Virus record (IMG/VR): IMGVR_UViG_2547132417_000018
From: a virus
Lineage: Duplodnaviria > Heunggongvirae > Uroviricota > Caudoviricetes
DNA length: 8,591 nucleotides
Strand: one strand, 5' to 3'
Positions within the stretch are counted from its first letter, which is position 1. The number at the start of each line of letters is the position of its first letter. The position numbers and the translations under genes are program-made. Below the pieces are notes generated by a model. That model made no database searches. It had not been told where the DNA came from and worked only from the letters and a program-made list of their open reading frames with translations. Shown here in pieces: positions 4,624-5,818 of the stretch.

Positions 4624-5818
4624 TATCCGGGTCGCTTTCAGCGCCGTTGACAGGCTGACCCGGCCTGCCGAAAACGCCCGCCGCCTGATGGGGCGGTTTG
4701 GTGACTCCATCCAGCGAACGCAGGGGGCGATCAAAAATCTCGAGCGTCAGGCGCGTTCATTTGAGCGCGCCCGTGACGCTGTCAGTAAAGCGGATGCTGG
4801 CATATTGAAAGCACGACGCCAGCTTAACGCTCTTAATCAGTTACAACGCACGGGTACAGTGCTCAGCGAAAAACAACAAAAGCTGATGCAGCAGTTAAGC
4901 ACCCGGCTTGAACGCCTGAATGAATCGCGCACACGGGAAATTCAGAAAATGCGGGAACTTGGCGGAGAGCTGAAACGCCACGGCATTTCCCTGACAGGCA
5001 GCGATAACACCATCCAGCAGGCCATCAGACGCACCGAACAGTATAACAACCAGCTTGAACGCGAACGGCAGGCGCTTGCGCGTGTAACGCGGGCGCGTGA
5101 GCGGTATTCGCGCGCGCAGGAAACAGCGGGAAAACTGAAAACAGGTGGTGCGCTGGCAATTGGTGCGGCAGCGGCGGGCGGCTATGCTGCCGGGCGTTTT
5201 TTACAGCCCGCGATCGGGTTCGGGAAAGAGATGTCCCGCGTTCAGGCACTGACGCGAATCGACCAGAACAGCCCGCAGTTTAAGGCGCTGCGTGAGCAGG
5301 CGTTAAAACTTGGCTCTGAAACGCAGTTCACCGCAGGCGATGCCGCCAGTGGACAGGCATTTCTTGCAATGGCTGGCTTCACTCCGCAGGCCATTCAGGC
5401 TGCGCTTCCCGGCGTGCTGAGCATGGCAACGGCTGGCGGTATGGATCTCGGCGAGACGGCGGATATTGGCTCAAATATCCTGACGCAGTTCGGCCTTTCT
5501 GCTGACCAGATGGACCGGGTCGGTGACACACTCACTGCAGCGTTTACCCGTACCAACACTGACCTTCGCGCACTGGGCGAAACCATGAAATATGCAGGTC
5601 CGGTGGCGGGTAAGCTGGGAATATCGCTGGAGCAGGCCGCAGCGATGGCTGGCGTGCTGGCGAATATGGGTATCAGGGGAAGTGATGCCGGGACGGCAAT
5701 GCGTGCCAGCCTGGCTCGTCTGGCATCACCGCCAAAGGCAGCAGCAGAGGCGCTGAAAGAGCTGGGCGTGTCCGTCTCTGACGCGGGGGCAAAATGCGCC
5801 CGATGGAAGATCTGCTGA
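4610..5818 (+). CDS. T: Tail tape measure protein (P2 gpT-like), N-terminal fragment ending at a frameshift
   Basis: Coiled-coil-rich, Q/R/E/L-rich sequence typical of a tape measure N-terminus. ATG at 4610 is preferred (GGGA about 10 nt upstream) and overlaps the end of E'; the track's start at 4574 is a GTG. The frame ends at TGA 5816-5818 shortly after a G5 run (5785-5789), where the protein continues in the -1 frame. Confidence 0.78.
   Translation: MKTLDIRVAFSAVDRLTRPAENARRLMGRFGDSIQRTQGAIKNLERQARSFERARDAVSKADAGILKARRQLNALNQLQRTGTVLSEKQQKLMQQLSTRLERLNESRTREIQKMRELGGELKRHGISLTGSDNTIQQAIRRTEQYNNQLERERQALARVTRARERYSRAQETAGKLKTGGALAIGAAAAGGYAAGRFLQPAIGFGKEMSRVQALTRIDQNSPQFKALREQALKLGSETQFTAGDAASGQAFLAMAGFTPQAIQAALPGVLSMATAGGMDLGETADIGSNILTQFGLSADQMDRVGDTLTAAFTRTNTDLRALGETMKYAGPVAGKLGISLEQAAAMAGVLANMGIRGSDAGTAMRASLARLASPPKAAAEALKELGVSVSDAGAKCARWKIC

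Follow-up and report, generated by a model that had tools for sequence, protein, structure and literature searches.

The apparent frameshift in the tape measure gene T of the 8,591-nt stretch of DNA analysed here (the window) is very probably an artefact, in which two co-resident prophages of one E. coli strain were merged into the chimeric consensus of a collapsed repeat, the collapse being read from the strain's finished assembly. Two full-length T proteins of 935 aa are encoded in the cell, and no split gene. The window forms part of draft contig APZL01000149.1 (GCA_000356845.2, E. coli 2854350), with which its letters are identical and whose end it falls short of by 26 nt. This draft was produced from 100-bp HiSeq 2000 reads with Celera Assembler (PMC5469772), and the isolate was later re-sequenced with Illumina and ONT reads and assembled with Unicycler to give chromosome CP189652 (PMC12697144). 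The 2013 and 2025 DNA preparations come from different growths of the isolate.

A search with the window's gpU protein led to CP189652.1 and returned two loci, corresponding to two P88-like prophages (Xuanwuvirus, P2-type), in both of which the T gene is intact at 2808 nt and 935 aa. Copy 1 (locus L255) lies next to tamB/ytfP at ~3.12 Mb, the same chromosomal site as the left flank of the window, and copy 2 (locus L256) lies next to vasI/flk at ~1.0 Mb. The tail modules of the two prophages are ~97-99% identical, and their T genes 97.0%. At the position of the split, copy 1 reads TCT GAC GCG AAC GGC, with no G run, and copy 2 reads TCG GAT GCC GGG GGC, with a run of five G residues after C (site strings GCGAACGGC for copy 1, on the tamB side, and GCCGGGGGC for copy 2, on the vasI side). 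The true T proteins recur in independent assemblies (P0016 on four contigs and P0017 on three), and copy 2 T DNA is 100% identical in loci L243, L245 and L246, while the two T fragments of the window are found on one contig only, APZL01000149.1. The 935-aa chimeric protein that results from repairing the window's frame had no exact match among ~15 billion proteins. From the 2025 Illumina run, a Logan contig (L247), itself a bubble-popped mixture, spans window positions 678-3381 only and ends short of the T site.

As a text, the window reads just as the initial annotation had described it: a G5 run, a stop codon shortly downstream, an open -1 frame and a continuous product once one base is supplied. 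The G5 run occupies positions 5785-5789 of the string GACGCGGGGGCAAAATG. Upstream, the T frame reads GTC TCT GAC GCG GGG GCA AAA TGC GCC CGA TGG AAG ATC TGC TGA, so that its product ends in SVSDAGAKCARWKIC before the TGA stop at 5816-5818 (Table 1). Adding one base within the G run yields, by computation, an uninterrupted product of 935 aa, and the real T gene accordingly corresponds to a continuous 4610-7416 plus one base. The split interrupts the PF10145 (PhageMin_Tail) domain, with the N-terminal fragment of the window covering profile positions 1-167 of 201 at 172 bits and intact copy 1 T covering positions 1-201 at 199.5 bits, above the gathering threshold. T is not a single uninterrupted reading frame as written in the window, whereas it is one in both finished-genome copies and in the relatives. 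Its earlier assignment as a P2-type tape measure is borne out by the PF10145 match, by its position between E/E' and gpU and by the P88-like length of the repaired gene.

Table 1. Tail module genes, T fragments and consensus blocks in the window
Feature	Position (nt)	Strand	Remarks
gpD-like tail/baseplate hub, 369 aa	1067..2176	-	PF05954
Tail sheath (FI-like), 394 aa	2333..3517	+	
Tail tube (FII-like), 170 aa	3517..4029	+	
Tail assembly chaperone (gpE-like), 124 aa	4085..4459	+	Phage_TAC_7, weak match
E' extension ORF, 51 aa, -1 frame of E	4468..4623	+	PF06528 Phage_P2_GpE; overlaps T start
T N-terminal fragment, 402 aa	4610..5818	+	deposited as END36979.1; artefactual TGA; sequence patched together from both copies
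Consensus block, copy 1	5740..5785		5/5 informative columns
Artefactual junction, switch point from copy 1 to copy 2	5783..5789	+	window GAC GC/G GGG G (slash, switch)
Consensus block, copy 2	5786..6396		32/32 informative columns
T C-terminal ORF, 540 aa, -1 frame	5794..7416	+	opens at ATG
gpU-like tail terminator, 162 aa	7429..7917	+	PF06995
Serine DNA invertase, 196 aa	7946..8536	-	Resolvase + HTH_7

A three-way alignment of the window with copy 1 and copy 2 gave 181 informative columns from window position 700 on. The window agreed with copy 1 in 55 of them and with copy 2 in 124, forming 20 alternating blocks, some of which rest on a single site or on sites ~20-60 nt apart. The two remaining columns, one with a T at 2413 and one with a 1-nt gap, agree with neither copy. 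The gap sits exactly on the boundary between the copy 1 block at 5740-5785 and the copy 2 block at 5786-6396 (Table 1). Here the window has 11 nt, GACGCGGGGGC, compared with 12 nt in both copies (GACGCGAACGGC in copy 1 and GATGCCGGGGGC in copy 2), and its string across the junction is TCTGACGCGGGGGCAAAATG. Within 5741-5829, 28 of the window's 31-mers are absent from both copies; these start at 5756-5783 only, and all of them cross the junction. Apart from the gap, the two resident copies jointly account for every base of the window's T. Among 5,426 complete E. coli genomes, a set in which CP189652 is not included, the best match reached 98.4% to the window's T and 98.8% to its upstream half. 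The blend extends across the whole tail module (window 700-8591). The T at 2413 falls in the sheath gene, where it differs from both copies and from the 2025 Logan contig, and is probably an error of the draft only.

T genes of this family also vary in short patches of their own. An in-frame 28-nt cassette at 6555-6582 (GAT GTC GTG CGC GAT GGG ATT ATT CAG GTC, DVVRDGIIQV) has DAIGSGISQV as its counterpart in all four aligned relatives, and three further relatives mismatch there too. This cassette derives from the strain's copy 1, which shows natural mosaicism of the T family in very short patches, and mosaicism alone is therefore no proof of an artefact. What is decisive is that both apparent parents are two copies in one genome.

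Under the collapsed-repeat explanation, reads from both prophages would have been stacked in a single contig with the unique tamB flank as its anchor, and the consensus would have tracked whichever copy held the local majority, hence flipping between them. At the site, the alleles are told apart by four neighbouring positions (GC G AAC GGC vs GC C GGG GGC), and the two 12-mers can be aligned with 5 edits either without gaps or with them (GACGC-GAACGGC / GATGCCG-GGGGC). A consensus that kept to copy 1 as far as the first gap column and took up copy 2 at the second would read GACGCGGGGGC. This string has 11 nt, one base below either parent, and is identical to the window, while none of the ungapped switches between the two alleles yields the window's 11-mer. 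We infer the gap-column step, which is plausible for this assembler run; what is observed is that there are two copies with intact T genes, that the window is a mosaic of blocks from them, and where the switch falls.

The window therefore has the marks of a collapsed repeat: near-identical copies, a sequence explained column by column, and an anomaly that coincides, together with the novel k-mers, with a switch point. In short-read overlap-layout-consensus drafts, two near-identical copies can likewise appear as one contig on one unique flank, with an alternating consensus and novel k-mers at the faulty junction only. A further point of likeness is that the contig breaks where the invertible tail-fibre segment, the repeat that comes next, begins to interfere. 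Loss of a base exactly at the switch point is less commonly described for such drafts than chimerism at the level of SNPs. Of the three causes offered by the initial annotation, error was right in kind, and the type of error proposed there was wrong, the chimeric consensus not having been considered.

The same mosaic could in principle have arisen in the 2013 culture by gene conversion between the resident prophages, leaving a mosaic T that had lost 1 nt at the edge of a conversion tract, a pseudogene and a tail-defective prophage. The substrate for conversion is present, with two homologous copies per cell, and the T family is mosaic by nature, with patches down to ~30 nt. However, the isolate's finished genome carries two intact T genes and no mosaic of the two, and the window's T fragments occur in no other assembly. 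Conversion would also require 20 alternating blocks over 8 kb, a pattern that column-wise majority voting fits better than recombination, as well as a later reversion to two clean haplotypes. We consider this course of events highly unlikely. The same low probability attaches to a real sub-population of 2013 with a tail module made finely mosaic by extensive conversion between the two prophages, in which heteroduplex repair at the four adjacent mismatches would have deleted the base and inactivated T. The suggestion of a genuine inactivating mutation in a defective prophage finds no counterpart in CP189652.1, where both T genes of 2854350 are intact 935-aa reading frames.

Comparison with orthologous tape measure genes, a check proposed at the outset, was carried out on ~155 related T genes recovered from IMG/VR and E. 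coli loci, all of which are in frame and none of which points to a G6 ancestor. Two common alleles of the site were recognized by aligning relatives: allele A, TCG GAT GCC GGG GGC (D-A-G-G), with its G5 run after C, and allele B, TCT GAC GCG AAC GGC (D-A-N-G). The window is identical to allele B over 5681-5784 and to an allele-A genome over 5785-6554, and since it matches B on the left and A on the right, the missing base lies exactly on the B-to-A junction. A natural recombination junction between alleles A and B was entertained as a candidate and dropped once both parents were traced to the strain's own pair of prophages. The short form was seen in none of the ~155 related T genes, its sole instance being the window's own contig. 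No G6 allele or second frameshifted copy was found in IMG/VR with patterns allowing 0-2 extra or 3-5 variable bases, or in complete E. coli genomes with local queries of 201 nt and 49 nt, and across the 201 nt that surround the site identity to complete E. coli genomes did not exceed 97.5%. The codon that follows Asp-Ala (window 5786-5788), within PF10145, is hypervariable among P2-like tape measures, with GGG, AGA, AAC, GAG, TCC, AGC, CAG and others represented, while the 3' flank GGC AAA ATG CGC CC is invariant.

These comparisons bear directly on the proposal that the true sequence is GCG GGG GGC and that one G of a G6 run was under-called. An extra G does restore the frame, and a simple crossover from copy 1 to copy 2 after GCG would give G6. 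Nevertheless, the finished copies read GCC GGG GGC and GCG AAC GGC, so that G6 occurs in neither real copy, nor does it occur in the related genes. The platform was Illumina, rather than 454 or Ion Torrent (PMC5469772), and the repaired protein is missing from the protein collection. A homopolymer miscall is exceedingly unlikely on this evidence. Programmed or low-level -1 slippage on G_GGG, with the P-site tRNA-Gly re-pairing one base back to make some full-length T, is next to impossible: GGG at 5785-5787 would pair just as well as GGG at 5786-5788, and GGC, read next in the -1 frame, would restore the ancestral residues D-A-G-G-K-M, yet the -1 arrangement was found in none of the relatives, this form of the tract is missing from the strain's finished genome, and the zero frame GCG GGG GCA offers only a single-tRNA G_GGG slip and no canonical X_XXY_YYZ heptamer.

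The programmed frameshift that the module most likely does contain lies 1.4 kb upstream of the T split, in E/E'. Conserved -1 programmed frameshifts of tail assembly chaperones are known from P2 (E/E+E') and lambda (G/GT). In the window, an A_AAT_TTT heptamer occupies 4402-4408 in the zero frame of E, and the -1 frame is open from there into the PF06528 reading frame. Although the flanks vary, 141 of 158 related loci have AAATTTT at the corresponding position. Judged from its sequence, this heptamer most likely represents the conserved E/E+E' programmed -1 frameshift of the tail assembly chaperones. The T split shares the tail module with this signal and lacks both its conservation and its canonical heptamer.

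The order of genes in the window, D(-), sheath, tube, E, E', T, U and invertase, is also that of P88 in the genus Xuanwuvirus (Peduoviridae). At the DNA level the window is 89-95.5% identical to records of this genus, among them P88 (94.3%), Chuche and Shae_phiSM. P88 and many E. coli prophages have a T gene of 2808 nt and 935 aa, as does the true gene behind the window. Related prophages were present in about one quarter of complete E. coli genomes, with identities up to 98.4% and up to three Xuanwuvirus copies per genome. In other genomes, the same prophage type occupies the vasI/flk and uvrC/pgsA sites.

Further features of the module and its relatives were recorded. At the prophage end beside ytfP/tamB, the window encodes a 93-aa protein without an assigned function (1-282, +), a Hok/Gef-family toxin (433-573, -) and an Ogr/Delta zinc-finger late activator (764-1024, -). 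gpD is called as 266 aa in CP189652.1 (3638-4438 in both L255 and L256), compared with the 369-aa reading frame of the window, and PGAP annotates it in NCCP 15734 and Z885 as an 801-nt 'VgrG/Pvc8 family' gene (L001 1566-2366; L241 1458-2258). The gpD DNA of CP189652.1 is identical to the window over 1152-2412, and the discrepancy looks like an inconsistency of start-site choice and annotation, rather than a truncation. Whilst D follows ogr directly in the window, the ogr-D interval of related prophages carries cargo, including SIR2_2/STALD with ThsB_TIR (Thoeris-like; L249 1626-3541), HetE-N with a 930-aa protein (L253 324-3442), a 1039-aa protein (L257 269-3388) and a further locus (L251 2809-3462). 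This interval looks like a hotspot of variable cargo with anti-phage defence genes. In ETEC-2264 and O114:H49 90-9280, an IS100 element (istA/istB) lies between T and gpU (L071 5717-7518) and alters the 3' end of T, giving a gene of 2799 nt, a real disruption of the same module.

The T 'frameshift' of the draft falls into a familiar class of assembly errors and has no biological reality, and END36979.1 (402 aa) and the 540-aa reading frame are artefacts. As the tail module of the contig is a blend of 20 blocks, no real haplotype underlies its sheath, tube, chaperone and T 'alleles', which should be kept out of work that counts pseudogenes, analyses recombination or types alleles. This type of error may also be present in other short-read drafts that Celera assembled from strains carrying two Xuanwuvirus prophages. 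T is intact in both prophages of 2854350, which leaves no sign of a defective tail or of recoding. With the artefact set aside, no biological difference from a P88-type gpT is left, the window's version being a chimera minus one base, and within the P2/P88 family of tape measures this T gene is unexceptional.
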